Virus record (IMG/VR): IMGVR_UViG_3300027804_002057
From: a virus
Length of the DNA stretch: 64,000 nt
Strand: one strand, 5' to 3'
Below, piece after piece: positions 9,996-23,244 of this stretch (position 1 is the stretch's first letter; every line of letters starts with the position of its first letter). The position numbers were made by a program, and so were the translations under genes. The notes beneath the pieces were generated by a model, which was not told the origin of the DNA, searched no databases, and saw only the letters and a program-made list of their open reading frames with translations.

Positions 9996-10679
9996 TTAAT
10001 CAATTAATCCTTTTGCAAATTTTTCTTTATTGGTATGTTCCCAACTATATAACGCATGATGTTTTAAAACTTCATTTTGAAAAGTGTTATAATCACCATA
10101 TTCTATATTATGTTTATCCAAATGTCCTCTTACTACACTATGGTAATGCCAAATTTCATTACTAAATTCGTTTTCCAATCCCAAATATCTTTTAGCTTCA
10201 ATTCCTGTCCATCCTGGCGAATATGGTGCGTTGCAATAACCATATTCAATTGGCATACTATCAATCATATGTTTAACCATTGGATGTTCTTTTTGAAAAG
10301 CAAATACGTTATTTGTTAATGTATAATCACAATGTTGCCAACCAACTCCCCAATGTCCAAAAACAATACCATCTCTATTTTCTAAGTTAAGAGAATCCAA
10401 GCTTTGTTTGAATTCCCAATCAATATCTAAGTACCAACCACCATGCTCATAAACAACTAACCATCGTATCATATCTGCACAAAATACATAATCTTTTCTT
10501 TCGTACATCGTATCATACATTTGTTGTAATCTTTCTGGTATTTGTGGTAAATTATCATCGGTCCACAAATTGTATTTGTAATCGGGATGTTTATCTCTAA
10601 TTTCTTCCGATATTCTTTTTTCTCTACTTGGTATAGGGTACTTACCAACCCAAACCTGATTTATAACTTTATCTATCAT
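9996..10679 (-). CDS. GT32 (OCH1-like, DxD) glycosyltransferase
   Basis: IDKVINQVWVG, HPDYKYNLWTD, ADMIRWLVVYEHGGWYLDID. Confidence 0.85.
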   Translation of the reverse strand: MIDKVINQVWVGKYPIPSREKRISEEIRDKHPDYKYNLWTDDNLPQIPERLQQMYDTMYERKDYVFCADMIRWLVVYEHGGWYLDIDWEFKQSLDSLNLENRDGIVFGHWGVGWQHCDYTLTNNVFAFQKEHPMVKHMIDSMPIEYGYCNAPYSPGWTGIEAKRYLGLENEFSNEIWHYHSVVRGHLDKHNIEYGDYNTFQNEVLKHHALYSWEHTNKEKFAKGLID

Positions 10680-11263
10680 AGCTTTGTTATTTCAAAAATT
10701 AAATCATCATATCTACCTTTTACATCTCTACTATCAAATATTTTTGTAGATACGTTAAAATTATTATCTTTTATTAGTTTTTCAAACTTTTCAAATCTAT
10801 CATATTCCTGCACATCTTCTATAATAATTTTACCACCCGGTTTTATTTTAGGTAACCAATATTGAATACAATACATTTGCGATTCAAATGTATGTGGGCC
10901 ATCATCTATCAAATAATCAATAGAATTATCTTCAAATAAATCAACAGTGCTTTGTTGATAAGCATCTTGGAAAATACTTGTTGCTCCCTTAATTTCAAAT
11001 GGTTTTTTATGATTGTAATGATATGGATATTTTTCTATTGCTGTGATTTCTGCTTTACGAAGCCACTCTCTCCACAATACCATAGAATATCCATCACCAA
11101 TCCCAATCTCAACCAAATTTATTTCCGCATCTCTATTTGTAAATTCATTGGTATAATAAGAATTTATGTAATCATGTGTTGTACCTTTATCGGTAATATT
11201 AAACCCACTATATTTTTGAGTATAATAATTCCAAAATTCACTAAGTGTTTTTAAATCTTCCAT
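10676..11263 (-). CDS. Class I SAM-dependent methyltransferase (sugar O-methyltransferase-like)
   Basis: TDKGTTHDY, LVEIGI, IDDGPH, KPGGKIIIEDV. Confidence 0.85.
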   Translation of the reverse strand: MEDLKTLSEFWNYYTQKYSGFNITDKGTTHDYINSYYTNEFTNRDAEINLVEIGIGDGYSMVLWREWLRKAEITAIEKYPYHYNHKKPFEIKGATSIFQDAYQQSTVDLFEDNSIDYLIDDGPHTFESQMYCIQYWLPKIKPGGKIIIEDVQEYDRFEKFEKLIKDNNFNVSTKIFDSRDVKGRYDDLIFEITKL

Positions 11264-11850
11264 TATTTTTCTTTAAATTTAATTAATTGAGAACCTCTAA
11301 ATGTAGGTATATAAAGTGCCCACTCAATTCTATGTGAATAATCTCTCATAAATTGAGATACGGAATTTCTTACGTCTGTGTGATAATCATAGTCATCCAA
11401 AATAACGTAACGTGAATTTTCCATTGCCATTTTTAAATCGTGAATTTTACAATTATAATCGTGACAACCATCAATTGATACTAAATCAAAAAATTGTGGA
11501 AGTTCGGTTTGTTCTTGTGAATCTAAATGTTGAATTTCCCATTTACAATTTCCGTTATAGTATTCACCTATATTGTTTCTTGCTATTTCGTTATTACCAT
11601 AAGTTTCCAAATCCCAACCCAATGCATATTCTAAATTTTCAGAACCTAACATTGTTGGTAAAAATGAAAAACCAAAACGTACACCTATTTCCATAAATGT
11701 TTTTGGTTTGATTGTTTTTGCTATGGCATAGTACCATTCAAAGCAGTTACCACTCCATACATAATCGTAAGAGTCATACTTAGTAAAAAATTCAGATGGT
11801 ATTACATCGTGAATTGATTCGGGTTTGTTTTTAAATAATTCTTCTATCAT
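11263..11850 (-). CDS. Methyltransf_24 family methyltransferase
   Basis: MEIGVRFGFS, DLVSIDGCHDY, ILDDY; start at 11850 (ATGA overlap). Confidence 0.85.
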   Translation of the reverse strand: MIEELFKNKPESIHDVIPSEFFTKYDSYDYVWSGNCFEWYYAIAKTIKPKTFMEIGVRFGFSFLPTMLGSENLEYALGWDLETYGNNEIARNNIGEYYNGNCKWEIQHLDSQEQTELPQFFDLVSIDGCHDYNCKIHDLKMAMENSRYVILDDYDYHTDVRNSVSQFMRDYSHRIEWALYIPTFRGSQLIKFKEK

Positions 11851-13031
11851 AATAAAACTGATTTTTTTGCTGTTTTTTGTATTTCGTTCCAATAATGCCA
11901 ACTGGCAGTATTTTCTTTTATATTTAAATTTTCTAAATATGGTAATTTATCCATATATTGTGCTTTATAGAATTGTCCATTTTCACCGGTGGTTATTCCT
12001 GCATTATGCATTATATTATATTTGTTATAATCATCTTCATTTGATGTTGCCCAACTAAATTGAAGATTATCATGACAAATTGTTTGGTATCCCATTTTCC
12101 ACCCATTCCATAATACAGCCCACATATCAGCGCACCATATTTGTAATTCGTGATGTGTTGGGTCTTCTTGCTTTTTCTTTGTATTTAATTCAGATACATC
12201 TTTAAAAAGTATTTCACATTCCTTTTCAACCCTATCCCAAAAATAATGAGATATTCCCTTCATTATATATTGTGCACCAATTGCATTTAATTCATTTGCT
12301 TCAACCAATTTTTTATCAATACCAACTATTTCACACATCAAGTCTAAAACATCTTCACCTTTTGATTTTATGTAATTATGTCCAATATACCAGCGAGTAT
12401 CCGACCCGTACCACTTATCATCATTAATCATATCATTGGTAATCCAATCTTTAATTGGTTTAGTGAATATAATATCACAATCATGATAAAATATTGTTTC
12501 ATCTTTTAGATATGGATGTGCTTTAAAATGTTGTTTAAGTATATTAGGTCTGATTGATGATATGTAATCTTTTGTTACCCTAATATCATCATAAAAAAAG
12601 AATCTTGCTGCGTAATTGTTAGCAAGTTTAGACCAAGCTTCAGGAATTGTACCATCCTCTTTCCAACAAACAATATCAACATTGTTTAAGTTTACACCCA
12701 TTTCTATAAAGTTATTTAGCATAACTTCAACTTGCCATGTGTAATATGGAATTGCAGGTTGCGCCGATACGAATCTTAGATTTTTACTTATTTTGTATTT
12801 TACAAGTTGTTGTTCAACTTCATTCCACCTATCATCGGGACACTGTCCCATTTCGGCAGTAAATACTTTGGATTTTAACATACATCCACATAATGAACAT
12901 ACGTTTCTAACACCATCCATTTCTTTTTTATTAGGACACGAATTACAAACTTCAATTCGTTTAAATGCTAATTCATTTATTTCATCATTTGGGTCATAAT
13001 TAATTCCCCAAGATTTAAAAATTTCTTCCAT
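11847..13031 (-). CDS. Six-Cys domain fused to a putative protein O-glycosyltransferase (GT95 HPAT / GT96 peptidyl-serine galactosyltransferase-like)
   Basis: YYTWQVEVM, YISSIRPNIL, FYHDCDIIFTKP (DxD), GAQYIM, WCADMWA in the same order as GT95/GT96 motifs. Confidence 0.6.
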   Translation of the reverse strand: MEEIFKSWGINYDPNDEINELAFKRIEVCNSCPNKKEMDGVRNVCSLCGCMLKSKVFTAEMGQCPDDRWNEVEQQLVKYKISKNLRFVSAQPAIPYYTWQVEVMLNNFIEMGVNLNNVDIVCWKEDGTIPEAWSKLANNYAARFFFYDDIRVTKDYISSIRPNILKQHFKAHPYLKDETIFYHDCDIIFTKPIKDWITNDMINDDKWYGSDTRWYIGHNYIKSKGEDVLDLMCEIVGIDKKLVEANELNAIGAQYIMKGISHYFWDRVEKECEILFKDVSELNTKKKQEDPTHHELQIWCADMWAVLWNGWKMGYQTICHDNLQFSWATSNEDDYNKYNIMHNAGITTGENGQFYKAQYMDKLPYLENLNIKENTASWHYWNEIQKTAKKSVLL

Positions 13032-13078
13032 TTTATTTATAACCTTTATTTAGTATAACTATAAAATTTTATAATTTT

Positions 13079-13726
13079 TTAACAAGATGTACAAGGTGAA
13101 CCAGACCCAGCAAATTGAGGTACATATTCCTGATTTAATGATGTCATCGGTGATATATCTCCTAAGAATTCTAAATTACTAAAGTTCTCACCAATTTGTC
13201 CAGCCAATACATTAACAGTACCACAAGTCTGTCCATTGTTTATTATTACATATCCTTCGAATACAGAAGATAAATCACCTGTCCATCTGAAAGGTACTGA
13301 TATTTGAGTATCTACTGCAATACTTGAGTATGCAAATACATCAACATATCCACTTCCGTCTGCTCCACCAGCACATAAATTTATATTAACCTGAGTCAGA
13401 GGTGCCGCAGTAGTTGTTGATGTAGATGTTGTAGTTGGTGCTGCGGTTGTAGTTGTTGTAGTTGTAGATGTTGTAGTTGTAGATGTTGTAGTTGTTGTTC
13501 CACCTGCACATGGTATAGTTTGTGTTATTGCGTTTGTACAAGTTCCGGTTGATGTTACTGTAACTTGTGTTGCCGCATCATCCACACTCACACTCTTACC
13601 AGCAGTTAATTCAGTTTTAGTTGCGGTTGATGGAGTTACACTTCCCACATTTGCTGTGAGATTAAAATTTGGTCCTAAATCAGCCCCTAAACCAGCTCCT
13701 AATGTTAATGTTATATTTCTTGCCAT
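13079..13726 (-). CDS. Thr-rich mucin-like probable virion protein
   Basis: Poly-Thr/Ser linker ending AAP between Cys-containing modules; N-domain paralogous to 13761..15410; no signal peptide. Confidence 0.75.
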   Translation of the reverse strand: MARNITLTLGAGLGADLGPNFNLTANVGSVTPSTATKTELTAGKSVSVDDAATQVTVTSTGTCTNAITQTIPCAGGTTTTTSTTTTSTTTTTTTAAPTTTSTSTTTAAPLTQVNINLCAGGADGSGYVDVFAYSSIAVDTQISVPFRWTGDLSSVFEGYVIINNGQTCGTVNVLAGQIGENFSNLEFLGDISPMTSLNQEYVPQFAGSGSPCTSC

Positions 13727-13760
13727 TTTATTTTTATTAATCTATAATTTCAAGTTAGGG

Positions 13761-15410
13761 TTAAGATGTATAAGTTGTTACTACACCTGAACTATTAATG
13801 AATGCAGCATAATTTGTACCTGCTCCATTTAATTGTACACGATACCATAAATCACCACCATTAAATGTAGTACTTAATCCCGAATCAGTATAGAATGTAG
13901 TTACATTCCCTATCATAGCATTACTATTTGAATATCTAGTTGGGCCTCCTGAAAACGATGCCAAAGCTGCTGCAGATGTACTATATCCTGTGCCACTTCC
14001 GTGGAATACCCACGAATAAGCAGCAGATGTTGTTGTAGTTGTTGTTGCCGAATCACACACAATTGTTAATCCATCATAAGTACATTGTGCTGCTGCCGCT
14101 GTGGTTGTTGATGTACTAGTCGATGTAGATGTACTTGTAGTTGTTGGTGCACCAGTTGTTGTTGATGTAGTTGTAGTTGTTGTTGTTTCATTTGGTGCCA
14201 ACGTTGTAGTAGTTGTAGTTGTTGGTGCACCAGTTGTTGTTGATGTAGTTGATGTTGATGTAGTTGATGTTGAAGTACTTGTAGAAGTAGACGTTGTTGG
14301 TGGCAACGTTGTACTCGTAGAAGTAGATGTTGAAGTAGTAGATGTTGAAGTAGATGTTGATGTAGTTGATGTAGATGTAGAAGTACTTGTTGAAGTTGTT
14401 GTACCAGGACAAGCAGTTTCTAAACTCAATGTACCATCGGTAGTTATTAAACATATACCAACACCTTTATTAACTGTTGTACAACCATTTAATTCGTCAA
14501 ATTGTTGTGAACAAACATTTTCAGTTGCACCAGCTGCAATAGTTAATAATGTAACAACTCCATCACAATCTCTAAATTGAATATTAACCGCACTTGCGCC
14601 ACCATTTGTAACATCATATTCAAAACAAGTTGGTGATACATACCAATAATTAGTACCATCCGAATACCACCCAGCAGGCGCCAATGTAGTTAATGAACCA
14701 TTTGTGTATATAACAGTTCCATCTCCCAACAATGAACCATTTTCTGCATAATAAGTTGTTGCAGATTGGTAACAAGCATCACCGCCACTAATTGTACTAT
14801 ATCTTAAACTAAATGTAGCCGGAGCCTGTGTTGTTGTAGTAGTTGATGTTGGTCCAGCGGTAGTAGTTGATGTGGATGTAGAAGTTGATGTAGTTGTAGT
14901 TGGTGCTCCGGTTGTTGTAGTTGTTGATGTTGTTGCACAAGAACCATTTGAAGATATAACACCCAATACACCAGTAACTCTAAACCAATTCGTACCATCT
15001 GAATAAAATCCAAGATTAACCGGTGTAGTTAATTGTTGGTCATAATATAAAGCCACACCGTTTGCCAAAACAGCGCCATTTGCCGCATAAACTATTCTCG
15101 GGTCTATTGTTCTATTTGTACAAGATATAAATGGATTAGCCGCATCATACCCTATCGTAAATTGAGCAGGTGCTGCGGTAGTTGTTGTAGTTGTTTGGCC
15201 CGATATATTGATATTAATTGATGTTGTACATGCGCCAGTTGATGTAACCGTAACTTGAGTTGCGGATGCATCGACATCAACTAATTTACCAGCCAGCAAT
15301 TCACTTCTTGTTGCGGTGCTAGGTGTAACACTCCCCACATCTGCTGTGAGATTGAAATTAGGCCCTAAATCAGCCCCTAATCCAGAATTAAGTGTTATAG
15401 TTACATACAT
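13761..15410 (-). CDS. Thr-rich mucin-like probable virion protein
   Basis: Four Thr/Ser tracts (longest about 100 aa) separating repeated YSDGTN modules. Confidence 0.75.
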   Translation of the reverse strand: MYVTITLNSGLGADLGPNFNLTADVGSVTPSTATRSELLAGKLVDVDASATQVTVTSTGACTTSININISGQTTTTTTAAPAQFTIGYDAANPFISCTNRTIDPRIVYAANGAVLANGVALYYDQQLTTPVNLGFYSDGTNWFRVTGVLGVISSNGSCATTSTTTTTGAPTTTTSTSTSTSTTTAGPTSTTTTTQAPATFSLRYSTISGGDACYQSATTYYAENGSLLGDGTVIYTNGSLTTLAPAGWYSDGTNYWYVSPTCFEYDVTNGGASAVNIQFRDCDGVVTLLTIAAGATENVCSQQFDELNGCTTVNKGVGICLITTDGTLSLETACPGTTTSTSTSTSTSTTSTSTSTSTTSTSTSTSTTLPPTTSTSTSTSTSTTSTSTTSTTTGAPTTTTTTTLAPNETTTTTTTSTTTGAPTTTSTSTSTSTSTTTAAAAQCTYDGLTIVCDSATTTTTTSAAYSWVFHGSGTGYSTSAAALASFSGGPTRYSNSNAMIGNVTTFYTDSGLSTTFNGGDLWYRVQLNGAGTNYAAFINSSGVVTTYTS

Positions 15411-15439
15411 CTTTTATATATATCTTTTCTTTTCATTTT

Positions 15440-17665
15440 TTATATTGAACATGCTAGCCCACAACTATTAAATGATTGTTCATACATTATCAAACCAGGT
15501 CCTGTTGATGGAGTTGTAGATGTTAATTGATATGCATATCCATCAGGAGTAGGTGTTGAATACCATTTGTTAATAACTGGAGTAAATGTGTCCGGAAACG
15601 CTATTTCAGTAGCCTCAACAAAAGCTCCACAATTTGGTGCATCACATACATATTTGTCCGCAGGATAAGCTATATAATTAATACCAGCAGTAGTTGTAGT
15701 TGTAGTAGTTGGTGCTGCAGTTGTAGTTGTTGTGGTAGTTCCACAAGTTTGTACAAAATCATAAATTATATAATGATAGAATCCACCACCATCGTCTGTT
15801 AATCTAATAACATCATTGCCGATTCTATAATGATTTTGACTTAAAGAATATGGTGCGCCGGAAATTACACCAGGCCCACAACCGCTATCAAAGTATAATT
15901 CACTACCAGCTATCAATGGACTATCATATGAATAAACTGTGAAATTATTTGTAGCCGTACATGCATCATTAGGGTCAGTAAATCCTATCACAATTGGTAA
16001 TCCATCATCATAATCATAGTACATTGTATATGAATATGGTGGTAATGGTCCACAAGTTGTAGTTGTAGTGGTTGTTGTACCAGCTATTGTTGTTGTACTT
16101 GTTGTAGTTGGTGCAGCCGTTGTAGTAGATGTTGAAGTAGAGGTTGAAGTACTTGTAGTTGATGTAGTAGTTGTTGTTGCAGGTACTTCACCAACAAATG
16201 TCCAGTTAGAACCACTTACAATATAAGTTTTACCAGAATTAAATGTTACACCAGACGTGAAATCAACAGCCCCTTCATTCTTTCTATATAAATTAGTTTG
16301 ATTTACAATTAATATACCATCTTCAAATACTTTCAATGTTGCACTTGCTGTTGTGAAACTACCCCATAAATGCGAAGCCAATCCATCTTTTGTTTTTAAT
16401 GTAATATCAGATGAAATATTAGCAGGAACATATTGTGTATATGAACCACCATCAAAATAGTATGTAGAACCAGCCACTATCATATCCATATCTAAGTAAG
16501 GTGGATTTCCGCCATCATACTCATCTAATTGAACAGTTATTAATAATGGTGCTGCGGTAGTAGTTGATGTAGAAGTACTAGTAGTAGATGTAGAAGTACT
16601 TGTAGTCGATGTTGATGTACTTGTAGTTGATGTAGTTGTTGTTGATAAATTACAAGCAGAAATACAAGTTGGATATGAAGTTTCATCACAATCAACCGAT
16701 GTACCAGCAGTTGTTAATCCTATTGGTTTATAACTATATCCATCAGGTGTAGTTGGTCTATACCATCTATTAACATTTGCGTAGAATGTTGAACTAAATC
16801 TAATCTTAACAGTACCAGGTATCAAACTACAATCAGTACAATCGTATCTTCTTGCTGAATAGTAGTTGTAAGGAGATGCTGTTGTAGTAGATGTTGATGT
16901 TGAAGTACTTGTTGATGTTGAAGTACTTGTTGATGTTGATGTAGTTGTAGTTGATGTAGGTGCAGCCGTTGTAGTACTTGTTGTTGAAGTAGTTGTTGAA
17001 GTACTTGTAGTTGATGTACCATATACAATAACAACACTACCACCATTGTAAGTACATATTGGTGCTGCGGTTGTTGTTGTTGTAGTTGATGTTGATGTAG
17101 ATGTAGTAGTTGATGTAGATGTAGTAGTTGATGTTGCATTACAACTAACCGCCACATTATTTATTTGATAATTTCCAGCACTATCTCTTAATATAACAAA
17201 ATAAGTACCATTTGATAAACTCGTAAACTGATATGATGTTGCTCCTAATAATTCAGTTTGTGCGGCTGAAAATGCTTGTCCAGATGTTGTACCAATACCA
17301 ACACTATAATATGTACCATTTCCACCGGTAAATGAACCAATTGTAATTCTACCAGTTCCATTCAATCCAGTACCCGTACAATCCGATGATATTGAAAAAT
17401 TTACACCAGCTAATGTAGTTGTAGTTGTGGTTGGTAATGCCGTATATGAACATAAACAAGATGGATATGGATAGCAAGTTCCTACAATTTGTATAGTTGC
17501 TGCAGATGATGCTGACACAGTGTTTTCTATCGCAGCAAAATCTATTGAACGATTCTTATTATAGATTAAATGTCTTGGACTACCAAATCCTTCACATTCT
17601 GTCCATTCCACATAAGAATCAGTCTTTTCAGGAACCGATACTCTATAAATGTAAACATCTGCCAT
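15440..17665 (-). CDS. Thr-rich mucin-like probable virion protein
   Basis: Six Thr/Ser tracts separating Cys-rich modules; duplicated WY..TPDGYxY module. Confidence 0.75.
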   Translation of the reverse strand: MADVYIYRVSVPEKTDSYVEWTECEGFGSPRHLIYNKNRSIDFAAIENTVSASSAATIQIVGTCYPYPSCLCSYTALPTTTTTTLAGVNFSISSDCTGTGLNGTGRITIGSFTGGNGTYYSVGIGTTSGQAFSAAQTELLGATSYQFTSLSNGTYFVILRDSAGNYQINNVAVSCNATSTTTSTSTTTSTSTSTTTTTTAAPICTYNGGSVVIVYGTSTTSTSTTTSTTSTTTAAPTSTTTTSTSTSTSTSTSTSTSTSTTTASPYNYYSARRYDCTDCSLIPGTVKIRFSSTFYANVNRWYRPTTPDGYSYKPIGLTTAGTSVDCDETSYPTCISACNLSTTTTSTTSTSTSTTSTSTSTTSTSTSTTTAAPLLITVQLDEYDGGNPPYLDMDMIVAGSTYYFDGGSYTQYVPANISSDITLKTKDGLASHLWGSFTTASATLKVFEDGILIVNQTNLYRKNEGAVDFTSGVTFNSGKTYIVSGSNWTFVGEVPATTTTTSTTSTSTSTSTSTTTAAPTTTSTTTIAGTTTTTTTTCGPLPPYSYTMYYDYDDGLPIVIGFTDPNDACTATNNFTVYSYDSPLIAGSELYFDSGCGPGVISGAPYSLSQNHYRIGNDVIRLTDDGGGFYHYIIYDFVQTCGTTTTTTTAAPTTTTTTTAGINYIAYPADKYVCDAPNCGAFVEATEIAFPDTFTPVINKWYSTPTPDGYAYQLTSTTPSTGPGLIMYEQSFNSCGLACSI

Positions 17666-17706
17666 TAATTATCCAGTATTTGTTAGATACTAATAAGTAT
17701 ATATTA

Positions 17707-19620
17707 TCAAGGTTTCGGTTCTATGGTATCATCTGAAACGAAATAGCTGGATATTGCATTAATTATGATTTTAGACCCTCTTTCCGATGTAGGATATGTT
17801 CTAGAATTTATATACTTTCGTTTACCAGCGTTCACAAAAGTAGATGCATTTGTATTAGAATTACAGTCCACCCAATAAACATATCCACCTTTTGTAGCCG
17901 TTATCATATATTCCGAACATACTACTGGTGCTTTTGTTGTTGTGGTTGTTGTTGGTCCTAATGTTGTTGTGGATGTAGATGTTGACGTAGATGTTGATGT
18001 AGTTGATGTTGATGTAGTTGTCAATGCGGGCGCAGCCGTTGTTGTTGTAGTTGTTGAAGTTGATGTGGTTGTAGTAGATGTTGAAGTTGATGTGGTTGTA
18101 GTTGTTATACCAATCAAATCATAATCAGCGTATAAAAAAGCCTGTGTACCACCTTGTAAACTTCTTGTATCAGACCAATCATTACTAAGTCCAGTTGTGT
18201 ATATTGTTGCCGTAGCTTTTGCTAATAATGATGCTTTAACTTGTGCAGGTGTCCAAGTTGGATTTTGTTGTAAAACCAATGCAGCAACTCCAGCTACTTG
18301 CGGAGATGCCATTGATGTACCACTTATATTAACTTGTCTATAAGATGCATTATTATAATAATTTTGTGCTGAGAATCTAGTTGTAGTTGAACACGCACTC
18401 ATTATATTTGTACCAGGTGCCCATATATCAACACCAGGTCCAGTTTCAGATGAAGTTGATTTTTGGTCTAAAGTTGAACTAAATGGAACTCTATCAACAT
18501 TACCAACAGTTAATGCATCATCATCATGTGGTGATGAACCTCTATGAATATATTTTGTACCAGTATCAGTAGATATTGTATTATTATAATCAGTACCACC
18601 AATCTTGTCTATTTTAAAAGAACGATTACCAGCTGCCACACAAACAACAACACCAGCATCTAATAATTCCTGAACATCAACATCTACGGAATCAATTCTG
18701 GTATTACAAATGTAATTATATCCATATGCAGCCCCACTTATATTTCTGATTCCATATGTACTTTGTCTATATGCCGCATTTCCAGTTGTGTTTGTGTCTG
18801 TATAATTTGTTCCTCTATATGTTACAGAAGATACTGTATTATAAAAACTCAAATATCCCCAACTCATATTAACTACCGTTGGTCTACTTCCTGCTTTTGA
18901 TGCATGCCAATTTTTAATAACATCAAATGCATATGTTACTGAAATACCAGTACCGCTATCACCACTCCCTTCTAATCCATTAACTTTTACAGAATATATT
19001 CTTGCTTCTTTTGCCCAACCATATGTTTTACCGCAAGCTATACCAGCACAATGTGTACCATGTCCATCGTAATCTCTATAATGATTTGCGTTTTGTGTGA
19101 AAGCACCACCACTATAAGAACCCCAATCTATTTGTTGAACTCTATTATTACCTAAAGCATCTTGAAATTCAGGATGGTCAACTTGAATACCACTATCTTG
19201 AATTACAACATCTACCCCATTACCATCTAAAGTATAATCATAAGTTGATGTAGTAGTTGTACCAGTACCATAAACGTTTGTTGGATTTGATGCTCTTATC
19301 AATCCCCAGTTAAGATACGAACCAGCCGATGTAGTTACTTTTGTAAAATCGCCCGTTTGCGTTGCTGCATGGGCCATTATAATATCATCTCTATGCTCCG
19401 GTGGAATTTCTACACAATAAACTCTTTCATCATTTCTAAGAGTTTCTGCTTCTTCATCTGTGAGCAAATACCAACATTGACGAAGTGATGCCGGTCTTTC
19501 GTTTGTAAATTCTATTCTACGATTTGGAATATAAAGTAAACCATCGGTTTCGGATTCCATATCATTCCAAAACCCATCGTAGTCAACTCCGGCTTTTAAC
19601 GCAACATTATATTGTTTCAT
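17707..19620 (-). CDS. Subtilisin-family (S8) serine protease with Thr-rich C-terminal stalk
   Basis: Catalytic triad motifs VVIQDSG, DGHGTHCAG, SGTSMASP; oxyanion AAGN; Thr tract near C-terminus. Confidence 0.9.
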   Translation of the reverse strand: MKQYNVALKAGVDYDGFWNDMESETDGLLYIPNRRIEFTNERPASLRQCWYLLTDEEAETLRNDERVYCVEIPPEHRDDIIMAHAATQTGDFTKVTTSAGSYLNWGLIRASNPTNVYGTGTTTTSTYDYTLDGNGVDVVIQDSGIQVDHPEFQDALGNNRVQQIDWGSYSGGAFTQNANHYRDYDGHGTHCAGIACGKTYGWAKEARIYSVKVNGLEGSGDSGTGISVTYAFDVIKNWHASKAGSRPTVVNMSWGYLSFYNTVSSVTYRGTNYTDTNTTGNAAYRQSTYGIRNISGAAYGYNYICNTRIDSVDVDVQELLDAGVVVCVAAGNRSFKIDKIGGTDYNNTISTDTGTKYIHRGSSPHDDDALTVGNVDRVPFSSTLDQKSTSSETGPGVDIWAPGTNIMSACSTTTRFSAQNYYNNASYRQVNISGTSMASPQVAGVAALVLQQNPTWTPAQVKASLLAKATATIYTTGLSNDWSDTRSLQGGTQAFLYADYDLIGITTTTTSTSTSTTTTSTSTTTTTTAAPALTTTSTSTTSTSTSTSTSTTTLGPTTTTTTKAPVVCSEYMITATKGGYVYWVDCNSNTNASTFVNAGKRKYINSRTYPTSERGSKIIINAISSYFVSDDTIEPKP

Positions 19621-19624
19621 CTAA

Positions 19625-19870
19625 TTATGATTCGCTTACTAAAGAAGCTTGATATGCTGCTATCACTTCTTCTGTCCAAACTGCATTTGCGATAGCTTGA
19701 ACTTTTGGGTCTTCGTTTACAATACTATCACCAGGTGAAAGTACATGTCTATGAAATGTTCTTGCAATTTCTTTACCATCTTTTTCTATGATTGTTGCAG
19801 TACGAACTTGAATATGATTTGATTGTACAAGTTCTACTAAGTCTACGATTTGTTTTTCTATTAATGCCAT
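19625..19870 (-). CDS. Small tail-fibre-associated protein
   Basis: IQVRTATIIEKDG..IARTFHRHV...VQAIANAVWT family usually found directly after phage fibre genes. Confidence 0.65.
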   Translation of the reverse strand: MALIEKQIVDLVELVQSNHIQVRTATIIEKDGKEIARTFHRHVLSPGDSIVNEDPKVQAIANAVWTEEVIAAYQASLVSES

Positions 19871-19880
19871 TTTATATTAT

Positions 19881-22800
19881 TTATGCTGTTTGATAAGTCA
19901 TTGAAAAGTGAATATTTGCAGAAGTGTCGATTGGAACGGAAGTAGCTGCTCCCCCACCAACAGGGTACTGAGTCACAGACGCTTCAGTTGAACTTGGTGT
20001 AATAGCCATTGTTGCTAAATTATTTGCAGTTAAGCTAAGGTTTTCTATCCAACCAAATGTTCCAGAAGCACGATAATTAGTTGTACTTATTGAAGTGAAT
20101 GGGAAATTAGCCAACAACATGTCTCCCGTTCCAGTGTGACCACTCCAATTAAGCCAAACATTGATTGTGACAAGATTTCCAATCTTTGTATAAGTTCCTT
20201 GTTGAACAGTGTATGTACCAGTTCCTGCGGTAGTTGAACCTTTTATTGTTGGTGTAAATGTTCCTTCTTCGTAATCATTTAATAATTCGGAAGTCATTGT
20301 ACCAGCACTATTTGATGTTGCCGAAAAGTCTATACCTTTGCCAGACGTACCGATTACTAAGTTACCAGTTGATACAGTTAGATTTCCAGTGGTTGCAGCT
20401 ATTCTTAATCTTTCAGTATCAGAACCAACTTTAACATATAAATCACCACCCACCGCGTCAGTACCAGTTCCAACCGATATTGATGCGAATCTATGAGTTG
20501 ATGAATTACCATAGCAAATAGTAGCTTCCTCACTATTACCACCTATAATACTAATTCCACTATTTCTACCAAATAGATATAATCCACTTTGATTTGAATA
20601 ATATGATTGTGCAGTTGTTGATGGTACAGATGCTATATCGTTATTGTATGATTTACGAATAGTTAAAGAACCAGTTAAAAAACTTGCAACCGGAGCGGTA
20701 GTATTTACACCAATGTTACCATCACCATTGATAGCAAATCGTATTGGTACACCATATGTATTTCCAGCAGTTACAGATACATCAGTTGCTTGATATCTCA
20801 ATAAAGCACCATCCATCGTAAGCATTCCCATTCCGTTTGCAGAAGTATAATTTGCTACTACAGTTCCAGCTGAGCCATATTTTGCATTTGAGCCAATATA
20901 AATGTCCGATGCGTTTCTATACATAATAGAACCACCACCAAAATTTAAATAATTATATGATGCTAATAGACTTGTTTGTGGATTGAAGTTAAAAGTAGTT
21001 TCTGTATTTACAAATGTTTGTGTACCATAGAATGTATTTGCCGATGCCGTTTCAGCGAACTTATAATAGTTTGTTATTTGTTGTGAAGATGATACAATTG
21101 CTGCTCCTTTTAAAGATGCCGTATATGCTTCAATACCACCCATCTCAGCTTTGATTGATGCGGTTTCAGCGTACAATTGATAAAGTTGTGCATCAGTTGC
21201 GTATGTCGAATCTAATGCTGCCGTAAATGCCATCAAACCATTTGTAATTCCTATTAAAGAACCCGTAGTTAATTCTAATGATTGCGTTGCCTGATATAAT
21301 TGGTATAATTGTGCATCAGTTGCGTATGTTGAATCTAATGCTGCTGTAAATGCCATCAAACCATTCGTAATTCCAATCAATGAACCAGTAGATGTATATA
21401 GATTAGAGTTTAATGCGAATACATCATAGTTTTGAACCTGCGTTGATGAAGATACAATTGCTGCTGCTTTTAAAGATGCAGTATAAGATTCTATTCCAGC
21501 TACTTCCGCTTTTATAGAACCTGTACCATTATATAAGTTAGAGTTTAATGCGAATAAATCATAGTTTTGAACTTGCGTTGAAGATGATACTATTGCTTGT
21601 CCTTTTAAAGATGCAGTGTATGCTTCAATACTATTTAATTCGATTCTAGCCGAAGATGTGAATATTGCATTTCCTAAATTTACAGCTAATTGAGAAGATG
21701 TGAATGCAGATACACCAACTATACTATTATTTGTTGATGAAGTGAATTGTGATATTACAAAGTTTCTACTATCTTGAGAACCAGTAAATATGTTCAATGA
21801 AGATGTAGTTTGGTACACTCTTACCAACTCACTACTTACACCAGAAGAAAGTCCAGCTATACTATTAGCAGTTGAACTACTATAATTTGTAAATGTAGTT
21901 GAGTTAGAACTACTAAATGTTGTATTATAGCTTGAATTTGAGCTACTATAATTTGTAAATGTAGTTGAGTTAGAACTACTAAATGTTGTATTATAGCTTG
22001 AATTTGAACTACTAAAGTTTGTAAACAATGTAGAGTTAGAGCTACTAAAGTTTGTAAATAATGTTGAATTCGAGCTACTTAGATTTGTATTGTAGCTTGA
22101 ATTTGAACTACTAAAGTTTGTAAACAATGTAGAGTTAGAACTACTCAAATTTGTGTTATAGCTTGAATTAGAACTACTTAATGCAGTTACATAAGTTGCA
22201 TTAGAACTACTAAATGTAGTGTTGTAAGTTGAGTTAGAACTACTTAATGCAGTTATGTACGTTGCATTAGAACTACTAAATGTTGTATTGTAGCTTGAAT
22301 TAGAACTACTAAAGTTTGTGAATAAAGTAGAATTAGAACTACTGAAATTTGTAAATAATGTAGAATTAGAACTACTAAAGTTTGTGTATAAAGTAGAATT
22401 TGAACTACTGAAGCTTGTTATAGCACTTGAGTTAGAACTACTAAAATCTGTAAATACTGCTGAATTTGAACTACTATAATATGTGTAATCTTCACCATTT
22501 ATAGTATGAGAACCTGTGAAGTATATAGAGCCTGTAAATTCGTGTAAATCATCAAAAGAGTTTCCGAATTTTGTAGAACCACTGGAATATATTATAGAAG
22601 ATGTTTCATATTGAGTATGTAATGTTCCTTTTACACTAACATTACCACCAATTTCCAAATTACCAGCCACCTCAATTCCGTTTCCACGAACAGTAACTGC
22701 ACCCTTTAAAGATGATGTATATGTTTGAACGCCAGCAACAGTTGCTCTGACTTCTCTAATAAAGTTATCTTTTAGATTATCCGCTGTAATTTGGTTAGTA

Positions 22801-22907
22801 GTACCATATAAAACCACAGGAATAACTGTAGTATTAGCTGGTGCCGTACCTACCGAAGCCGTTACATCCGTTATAAAAGGTAATTCGGTTATCTTCTTAT
22901 CTGCCAT
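19881..22907 (-). CDS. Long tail-fibre-like protein with Ser-rich 11-residue repeats
   Basis: MADKKITELP start, SSGSTKFG..DDLHEFTGS, GNIGVNTTAP, C-terminal GKGIDFSAT...LNDYEEGTFTP...YTKIGNLV fibre-tip domain. Confidence 0.8.
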   Translation of the reverse strand: MADKKITELPFITDVTASVGTAPANTTVIPVVLYGTTNQITADNLKDNFIREVRATVAGVQTYTSSLKGAVTVRGNGIEVAGNLEIGGNVSVKGTLHTQYETSSIIYSSGSTKFGNSFDDLHEFTGSIYFTGSHTINGEDYTYYSSSNSAVFTDFSSSNSSAITSFSSSNSTLYTNFSSSNSTLFTNFSSSNSTLFTNFSSSNSSYNTTFSSSNATYITALSSSNSTYNTTFSSSNATYVTALSSSNSSYNTNLSSSNSTLFTNFSSSNSSYNTNLSSSNSTLFTNFSSSNSTLFTNFSSSNSSYNTTFSSSNSTTFTNYSSSNSSYNTTFSSSNSTTFTNYSSSTANSIAGLSSGVSSELVRVYQTTSSLNIFTGSQDSRNFVISQFTSSTNNSIVGVSAFTSSQLAVNLGNAIFTSSARIELNSIEAYTASLKGQAIVSSSTQVQNYDLFALNSNLYNGTGSIKAEVAGIESYTASLKAAAIVSSSTQVQNYDVFALNSNLYTSTGSLIGITNGLMAFTAALDSTYATDAQLYQLYQATQSLELTTGSLIGITNGLMAFTAALDSTYATDAQLYQLYAETASIKAEMGGIEAYTASLKGAAIVSSSQQITNYYKFAETASANTFYGTQTFVNTETTFNFNPQTSLLASYNYLNFGGGSIMYRNASDIYIGSNAKYGSAGTVVANYTSANGMGMLTMDGALLRYQATDVSVTAGNTYGVPIRFAINGDGNIGVNTTAPVASFLTGSLTIRKSYNNDIASVPSTTAQSYYSNQSGLYLFGRNSGISIIGGNSEEATICYGNSSTHRFASISVGTGTDAVGGDLYVKVGSDTERLRIAATTGNLTVSTGNLVIGTSGKGIDFSATSNSAGTMTSELLNDYEEGTFTPTIKGSTTAGTGTYTVQQGTYTKIGNLVTINVWLNWSGHTGTGDMLLANFPFTSISTTNYRASGTFGWIENLSLTANNLATMAITPSSTEASVTQYPVGGGAATSVPIDTSANIHFSMTYQTA
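21171..21390 (-). repeat. Intragenic duplication, 123-nt period (TGSLIGITNGLMAFTAALDSTYATDAQLYQLY x2)
   Basis: Identical 32-aa peptide with synonymous nucleotide differences. Confidence 0.85.
21855..22481 (-). repeat. About 18-19 tandem 33-nt units encoding x[FLY]SSSN[SA][ST]xxT
   Basis: Directly visible in translation and as recurring gaactacta on plus strand. Confidence 0.9.
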
Positions 22908-22945
22908 TTTTCAATATTATTTTCGTAAAGTTAGTATTTAACTCA

Positions 22946-22954
22946 TATAAATAT
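22946..22954 (-). promoter_or_regulatory. Putative phage late promoter (ATATTTATA)
   Basis: About 40 nt upstream of tail-fibre ATG. Confidence 0.5.
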
Positions 22955-22971
22955 TGAAAAATATAATAAAA

Positions 22972-23244
22972 CTACTCCCCAGAAAATCCTCTTTTCTTTT
23001 TCTTAGTACTCAACGCAGATGTGGGTAGAGTTCCTTCGGCTATCTTATCTAATATAACCTCTCTTTGATTTTTACGAATAGCCTTTTGTTTTTGTTCCCT
23101 TTTTTCGGTTGTGGGTTTTGTATATTCTTTTCGGTCTCTCAATTCCATAATGTGACCGGATTTGATTACCTTTCTTTTGAATTCTTTTAGAGCCTTATTT
23201 ATGTCCTGCTTTGTACAGTCCACTATAACGATTGATACTCCCAT
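22972..23244 (-). CDS. rpsU: Ribosomal protein bS21
   Basis: DINKALKEFKRKVIKSGHIMELRDRKEYTKPTTEKR matches bS21 pattern. Confidence 0.85.
   Translation of the reverse strand: MGVSIVIVDCTKQDINKALKEFKRKVIKSGHIMELRDRKEYTKPTTEKREQKQKAIRKNQREVILDKIAEGTLPTSALSTKKKKRGFSGE

Follow-up and report, generated by a model that had tools for sequence, protein, structure and literature searches.

Modular tail fibers and receptor-binding proteins of phages combine a conserved N-terminal anchor with exchangeable C-terminal tips, and immunoglobulin (Ig)-like or FN3-like decoration domains occur on phage particles, as in T4 Hoc. Secreted glycoside hydrolases use a design of linkers and binding modules, and mucins carry Pro/Thr/Ser domains. 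In mycobacteriophages, phage transferases modify capsids as well as tail tubes (Freeman et al. 2023, as represented in passages of PMC10877033 and PMC12801897). Here we analyze four consecutive minus-strand genes, designated A to D (13079-19620), in a 64,000-nucleotide stretch of viral DNA (IMG/VR record IMGVR_UViG_3300027804_002057), hereafter referred to as the window. Their products consist of small modules, and in one case a protease, that are separated by poly-Thr/Ser tracts. On balance, we lean towards the view that A to D are O-glycosylated, cassette-swapping virion fiber or adhesin proteins, probably of a Bacteroidota phage, and that the modifying enzyme may be the product of a nearby partner gene (11847-13031).

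Thr/Ser tracts and module architecture

Based on a sliding-window definition, A to D contain 16 Thr/Ser-rich tracts of 9-105 residues, which separate modules of 13-138 residues and a 375-residue protease core. An earlier model-made reading of the DNA (the sequence-only reading) had counted about a dozen tracts, which is too low, but it had rightly singled out these genes as four consecutive tract proteins: among the 63 minus-strand open reading frames (ORFs) of at least 100 amino acids in the window, only these four encode a run of at least six Thr/Ser residues. The combined Thr and Ser content is 25-40% per protein, and the tracts themselves hold 277 Thr and 96 Ser with little Pro. Tracts end in the pattern TTT[AGLQ][AGP]P on 16 occasions, and the endings TTTAAP and TTTGAP that had been noticed before account for 10 and 3 of these, respectively.

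The mixed codons of the tracts had been taken as a sign of selection on the peptide and not of simple slippage, and this view holds up. The codon frequencies inside the tracts (ACA 0.58, ACT 0.34, TCA 0.50) are close to those in the rest of the window (0.45, 0.39 and 0.31), and the tract DNA contains only imperfect repeats with a period of 15, 18 or 78 and a match of 65-90%. Linker lengths were counted between sequence anchors in orthologues of B that are 72-99% identical. Linker 1 of B (15171-15203) has 9 residues and linker 2 (14823-14942) has 38 residues in every measurable orthologue. Such exact lengths indicate that the tracts are constrained and are not slippage products, and they suggest that function dictates how long the spacers are. 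In the 105-residue linker of B (14100-14370), approximately three imperfect 78-bp units (74-79% match) can be recognized, a trace of an old internal duplication. The linker-coding DNA of the four genes is 60-77% alike and in phase; that this similarity serves as a substrate for cassette exchanges is plausible but unproven.

All four genes are on the minus strand and are separated by gaps of 29-41 bases. Protein A (13079..13726, 215 amino acids) consists of an N-terminal domain termed N1 (13505-13726), a 34-residue Thr/Ser linker and a 107-residue C-terminal domain with four Cys residues (13082-13402). Protein B (13761..15410, 549 amino acids) starts with its own N1 (15204..15410), a predicted FN3/Ig-like sandwich that is always N-terminal in relatives. 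This is followed by a first copy of the Y ('YSDG') module (14943..15170), a second Y copy (14616..14822) with a Cys-rich beta-sandwich packed after it (residues 263-334, 14409..14624), the 105-residue linker, a 13-residue CTYDG mini-element between two linkers (14055..14093) and a Y-like end cassette (m5, 13764..14018). Protein C (15440..17665, 741 amino acids) has the order N2 - G - CTYNG - W - m5 - m6 - W with seven main linkers; its G module is located at 17141..17407, its CTYNG mini-element, also between two linkers, at 17024..17062, the first W copy at 16652..16870, and the second W copy, which is the end cassette, at 15443..15682. Protein D (17707..19620, 637 amino acids) comprises a propeptide-like N-terminal part, an S8 subtilase domain (approximately 18205-19224), a 61-residue linker and the P module (17710-17928). 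D has the tract expected of a beads-on-a-string protein, as which it had been described, but most of it is a subtilase, to which a single long linker and a small C-terminal module are joined.

Modules are reused within and between these proteins, largely as the sequence-only reading had proposed. The N-domain common to A and B is 73% identical over 67 amino acids (E 1e-33), and the two copies of the WY..TPDGY module in C are 38% identical (E 9e-11). Repetition of the YSDGTN module in B was likewise found, but with three copies (E 6e-11 and 5e-7) instead of two. The CTYxG element, 13 residues standing alone between two linkers in both B and C, is kept in relatives; its sequences are QCTYDGLTIVC and ICTYNGGSVVIV, too short for a domain. 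Cys residues bracket the modules in the alignment.

Searches with whole A, B and C against Pfam and PHROGs gave no match, B and C likewise had none in a tblastn search of 50,697 phage records, and no known fiber family was matched by A to C in these family and phage-record searches. When 12 separate modules were compared with Pfam at E-values up to 10, only sub-threshold noise was found, and no carbohydrate-binding family was matched. The G module scored 13.1 bits against Por_Secre_tail (cut-off 27) and 15.3 against SdrD_B (cut-off 29.7). Its assignment as a SprB repeat or a type IX secretion system (T9SS) C-terminal sorting domain was rejected, these scores being below the Pfam gathering scores and the resemblance weak. 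Inspection by eye revealed no signal-peptide-like N-terminus in A to D. We also rejected an identification of A to D as Gram-positive serine-rich repeat adhesins, which are characterized by Ser-x dipeptide repeats, a special signal peptide and a cell-wall anchor, as the tracts are Thr-dominated and no signal or anchor motif is visible.

Mosaicism among relatives

To compare the order of modules in relatives, we cut the proteins at the tracts and compared the pieces, which defined the module families N1, N2, N3, Y, G, W and P. These families occur in varied order and copy number, the G module being present three times in one related locus (L001) and also in the B-type proteins P0001-P0003. Thirteen database proteins (P0001-P0013) match B at 72-99% identity over residues 1-334 and then diverge. 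Seven of them (P0001-5, P0007 and P0011) end in the terminal W cassette of C with 68-84% identity, and a different Cys-rich module closes P0006 and P0012. B-type orthologues also have complete additional modules, placed behind the Cys domain. Conversely, some C-type orthologues end in the terminal cassette of B. The proposal of a modular, shuffled set is therefore well founded: modules are kept in relatives in different orders and, judged from these alignments, N-terminal stems are kept while C-terminal cassettes have moved between B-type and C-type genes. As linkers 1 and 2 retain their 9 and 38 residues in the same comparison, B combines a constrained spacer length with a distal part that varies by cassette.

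The shared N-domain had been suggested to be a capsid or tail anchor. In agreement with this, the N1 motif is located at residues 15-18 in all 23 carrier proteins, as expected of an anchor, and N1 is a confidently modelled sandwich that is FN3/Ig-like on a weak fold match (Z 5.5; see below). In many C-type relatives (P0166-P0181) an extra 83-residue Cys-containing module is found ahead of N2.

Predicted structures

Structure prediction was carried out on B. An AlphaFold2 model of residues 1-334, built on a 43-row alignment, contains four confident beta-rich domains, and the linkers at 72-78 and 161-193 have a predicted local distance difference test (pLDDT) score below 50. Residues 197-334 modelled alone reach a pLDDT of 91.7. 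The small modules of the sequence-only reading reappear in B as confidently predicted domains. A clear fold match to solved structures was not obtained. With Foldseek, neither B model matched anything in the PDB at an E-value of 0.001 or better; the best rows, belonging to CBM22, had a non-significant E-value of 0.08. The wide VIA-align search found no solved relative at Z of at least 5 for residues 197-334, the Y part being barely covered. For N1, the same type of search gave an FN3 domain as best match (Z 5.5, root mean square deviation 2.5 A over 67 residues), which is generic and weak, and many rows of the N1 fold search were tied, including a phiKZ baseplate protein and T9SS substrate domains. 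The BFVD neighbors of the model of residues 197-334 are solely uncharacterized proteins from uncultured tailed phages.

The partner gene

After gene A follows the partner gene (11847..13031, minus strand), a member of phrog_4417, a family without assigned function. Its invariant YHDCD motif, which is DxD-like, and its position after the Thr/Ser proteins make it a candidate protein O-glycosyltransferase. The language-model neighbors of its product include clusters that carry plant hydroxyproline arabinosyltransferase (HPAT), found on 10% of the members of one cluster, and DUF7164.

We examined the association between the partner gene and tracts in 75 further metagenomic loci that were found through the partner gene. 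The ORF directly upstream of the partner encodes a Thr/Ser run of at least six residues in 54 of the 75 loci, and any of the three ORFs upstream does so in 62; such runs are present in only 8 of 639 other same-strand ORFs of these loci. The pairing recurs in four cultured phages. In Enterococcus phage phiFL1A, Lactobacillus phage Iacchus and Clostridium phage phiCTP1, the gene upstream of the partner is annotated as encoding a major tail or tail tube protein and its product has a poly-Thr end, as does the major head protein of phiFL1A. In Chryseobacterium phage MA9V-3 (L077, 3618-9301), two unannotated upstream proteins have internal Thr/Ser tracts of 18-41 residues, and the partner homologue is followed by a 786-amino acid protein with a C-terminus that looks tail-fiber collar-like by eye.

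A second set of 75 related metagenomic loci was fetched via homology to the subtilase. A protein with several Thr/Ser runs is found only in the four closest of these (L001, L002, L003 and L020), the others having at most single short runs, and a partner homologue is likewise confined to these four loci. In three of them it comes directly after the final Thr/Ser protein, and in L001 it is located two genes further on. The layout of a transferase beside its substrate, if the partner is such an enzyme, therefore holds in the window, in three of the four closest loci, in 54 of the 75 further loci and in the four cultured phages.

The subtilase and the Y module family

Protein D matches Pfam PF00082 over residues 133-472 with 129.5 bits (cut-off 21.8) and is a full-length relative of phrog_9158 (E 1e-76). 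The motifs IQDSGI, GHGTHCAG and SGTSMASP align with keratinase 5wsl, and the Asp, His and Ser motifs also with proteinase K, which identifies D, as judged from these motifs, as a proteinase-K-type S8 subtilase with an intact catalytic triad. Residues 1-117 have no Pfam match and resemble an I9-type propeptide by eye only; this region is kept in all relatives. Among the relatives, L001, L002 and L020 share the linker and P module of D, which neither L003 nor the more remote relatives that were inspected possess. Pfam Mucin matched D with 17.3 bits, below its threshold of 34.7.

The genomic context of the subtilase points to tail genes. In the cultured cyanophages S-CREM1 and P-SSM2, D homologues are located among genes for baseplate wedge, tail pin, tail fiber and tail spike proteins, and in the relatives inspected the subtilase gene is preceded by a gene for a Ser/Thr-rich fiber-like protein or other tail-fiber-like genes. 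In a more distant relative (L021), it lies a few genes from proteins whose N-termini were read by eye as sheath, tube and portal.

The Y module was searched for with a nine-copy profile against representative clusters, which matched 610 clusters at an E-value threshold of 0.001 and 132 at the stricter threshold of 1e-10, with up to eight matched copies per protein. Approximately half of the best 150 Y proteins (P0014-P0163) have Thr/Ser runs, and 149 of these 150 lack a signal-peptide-like start as judged by eye. The exception, P0122, is a probable cellular protein with a signal-peptide-like start that carries Y at its end. Equating Y with DUF5977 was rejected since, in P0122, DUF5977 spans 1033-1097 and the Y copies 1206-1415, which are different regions. 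In a sample of 32 Y proteins, three carry phrog_14478 ('virion structural protein') and some further ones carry tail-fiber or collagen-like families. The C-terminal end of one protein, P0157, is formed by a Y copy, and homologues of this protein are annotated as structural in records of Cellulophaga, Flavobacterium, Tenacibaculum and Maribacter phages. The language-model neighbors of Y are viral hypothetical proteins. Taken at the level of sequence, Y defines a large, uncharacterized and largely phage-borne domain family, often placed C-terminally on phage structural proteins, and it is a candidate host-recognition element on phage particle proteins.

Genomic setting and host

All long ORFs in the window are on the minus strand, and its GC content is approximately 31%. 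It encodes a T4-type DNA polymerase and clamp loader as well as a very large sugar island with nucleotide-sugar enzymes, glycosyltransferases, a carbamoyltransferase and methyltransferases. The closest cultured relative by DNA polymerase is Microcystis phage Mel-JY01 (52%), marine T4-like cyanophages reaching approximately 33%; megablast of 20 kb of the window against the phage records gave no DNA-level match. The phage is large, T4-like and from water.

Ten consecutive gene starts (10676-23244) have leaders rich in A or A/T, in which no Shine-Dalgarno-like element was seen by eye. The hosts of the cultured phages that carry the Y module are Flavobacteriia, and the best cultured match of the partner gene is in a Chryseobacterium phage. 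Because of these leaders, the Flavobacteriia phages with Y and the Chryseobacterium phage match, the host is probably a member of the Bacteroidota. In the window, the T4 late-promoter motif TATAAATA occurs less often than expected by chance, and scans for sigma-70 promoters and terminators gave counts at shuffle level. The sole minus-strand TATAAATA near the locus (13034-13041) is located 3 bases before the ATG of the partner gene, which is too close for a T4-type late promoter of that gene.

Upstream of D, an 81-amino acid protein of phrog_6228 (19625..19870, minus strand), present among the related loci in L020 only, lies between the subtilase and a gene for a 1008-amino acid Ser-rich fiber-like protein (19881..22907, minus strand). 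A fiber-like gene likewise precedes the subtilase in the relatives examined. This protein contains approximately 18 units of an 11-residue SSSN repeat, which corresponds to a 33-bp tandem array, and its identity to the corresponding proteins of related loci is only 33-60%. The partner gene is immediately followed by two methyltransferase-like genes (10676..11901, minus strand), the products of which could tailor the glycan.

Discussion

The data can be brought together in a model in which A to D would be part of the phage particle, or would act beside it at the host surface. Each protein would start with a conserved N-terminal stem, N1 being a small predicted FN3/Ig-like sandwich and N2 a second type, followed by beta-rich, Cys-bracketed modules of 70-140 residues between poly-Thr/Ser spacers. 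The spacers, predicted to be disordered, would most likely become O-glycosylated inside the infected cell through the action of the partner gene product, and enzymes of the surrounding sugar island may extend and tailor the glycans. As no secretory signal was seen by eye in A to D, glycosylation, if present, must take place in the cytoplasm. Sugars would make the spacers stiff, extended and resistant to proteases, the latter property being relevant because one member, D, is a predicted active subtilase, and such spacers could place the modules tens of nanometers from the attachment point. The modules, which are rich in conserved aromatics, would bind host-surface or environmental ligands, and the end cassettes are swapped between genes and strains, probably via recombination in the similar linker DNA, in the manner of tail-fiber tips. 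The location in the virion, for which the sequence-only reading had opted, is supported indirectly: by the context of the subtilase, by Y on homologues of structural proteins and by the position of the partner after tail and head proteins.

Several observations weigh against this model. The partner has no Pfam match, including in a scan of all 13 members, and no match among PDB sequences in single-sequence and 13-member profile searches; its assignment to the glycosyltransferases, which is unproven, draws on the DxD-like motif, on language-model neighbors of which only 10% carry HPAT and on its position. The 75 partner loci are 57-80% identical to the query and thus do not represent independent events, so that independent support for the pairing comes mainly from the four cultured phages. 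Alternatively, the spacers might be plain, unmodified flexible tethers, comparable to the Pro/Thr linkers of multi-domain enzymes, with the downstream gene employed otherwise and the proteins still being modular fibers or adhesins. The missing glycosyltransferase signature fits this explanation, as does the fact that the linkers are predicted to be disordered regardless of modification. Nevertheless, we consider it unlikely, since the association between partner and tract is strong and polar (54/75 versus 8/639) and recurs in unrelated cultured phages, the genes are located inside a dense island of sugar-nucleotide and transferase genes, and the tracts, which have little Pro, consist almost entirely of Thr and Ser.

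Other difficulties for the model of glycosylated particle proteins concern location and binding. The canonical T4-like structural block is absent from the 64-kb window, A to D being situated between replication genes and the sugar island. In Cys-rich domains that are synthesized in a reducing cytoplasm, disulfides could not arise before release. N2, being preceded by another module in many relatives, is not always N-terminal. For the modules, neither Foldseek nor VIA-align nor BFVD yielded a fold match to the B models that would point to ligand binding. The lack of structural genes nearby and the layout of D (enzyme, linker, small module), which is typical of secreted hydrolases, would also be compatible with A to D being soluble, non-particle products that are released at lysis, the subtilase and binding proteins then acting on neighboring cells or organic matter like the carbohydrate-binding modules of secreted enzymes. 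We regard this as distinctly improbable, because subtilase homologues are found inside baseplate and tail-fiber clusters, Y occurs on homologues of proteins annotated as virion structural, stems are kept and tips swapped as in receptor-binding fibers, and three of the four cultured phages examined have the partner next to proteins with a tail or head annotation. Export of A to D to the host envelope, where they might alter the cell surface and for instance exclude other phages, is hardly credible: their Cys-rich, Thr/Ser-rich, adhesin-like character and weak sub-threshold resemblances to Bacteroidota surface-protein domains are outweighed by the lack, by eye, of a signal-peptide-like or hydrophobic N-terminus in A to D and in 149 of the 150 listed module-bearing proteins, and of a sorting domain at threshold.

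If A to D are indeed glycosylated particle proteins, phage particle glycosylation would widen from the capsids and tail tubes of mycobacteriophages to aquatic T4-like phages and to internal spacers. A Thr/Ser tract encoded directly upstream of a phrog_4417 gene would then provide a sequence rule for candidate substrates, which also holds in culturable Enterococcus, Lactobacillus, Clostridium and Chryseobacterium phages; MA9V-3 is a possible cultured test system for Bacteroidota phages. Strain-level cassette exchange could explain microdiversity in host range among uncultured freshwater or marine phages. A more far-reaching idea, which we take seriously without expecting it to hold, is that the particles of tailed phages that infect aquatic Bacteroidota bear glycoprotein stalks of the bottle-brush type, in which a dedicated cytoplasmic enzyme of an undescribed family would glycosylate fixed-length spacers that carry interchangeable binding domains of the new and very widespread YSDG family and a glycan-protected subtilase. 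In phages, such stalks would correspond to mucins and cellulosome-like display, and they would open a new route of host-range change, namely cassette exchange at linkers.

In the literature we found no description of poly-Thr/Ser linkers or spacers as a building principle of phage proteins. The system closest in principle is virion glycosylation in mycobacteriophages, where, as presented in the passages cited above, phage transferases beside structural genes modify particle proteins. In those passages the substrates are capsid and tail-tube subunits, whereas the presumed substrates in the window are internal poly-Thr/Ser spacers of multi-module proteins. Moreover, no named family includes the partner enzyme, the probable host does not belong to the actinobacteria, and the present system is known from sequence alone. 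As in modular tail fibers, the stems of A to D are kept and the C-terminal cassettes horizontally exchanged, and fiber genes adjoin the locus. However, A to D lack signatures of trimeric coiled or beta-helical shafts and have small globular domains on low-complexity spacers instead. The Thr/Ser-rich spacers between folded modules, and the order of enzyme, linker and small module in D, are reminiscent of secreted hydrolases and mucins, but the tracts are Pro-poor and the Pfam and fold searches gave no significant match to a carbohydrate-binding family or fold. Of the features of mucin-type Pro/Thr/Ser domains, long Thr/Ser tracts are present and entry into the secretory pathway is not apparent by eye. 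The subtilases of T4-like cyanophages (S-CREM1, S-H38 and P-SSM2 PSSM2_297; phrog_9158) are full-length relatives of D with 28-36% identity and have the same place beside fiber genes; the Thr/Ser linker and P module were added only in the small clade to which the window belongs. Finally, N1 resembles the decoration domains of T4 Hoc in being a predicted small FN3/Ig-like sandwich, but differs from them in its weak match, in having no sequence family and in its N-terminal position as a possible anchor rather than an appended decoration. Particle glycosylation, modular fibers and a phage subtilase are thus known in principle, whereas the novelty lies in how they are combined, in the spacer design, in the unnamed partner family and in the Y-domain family.

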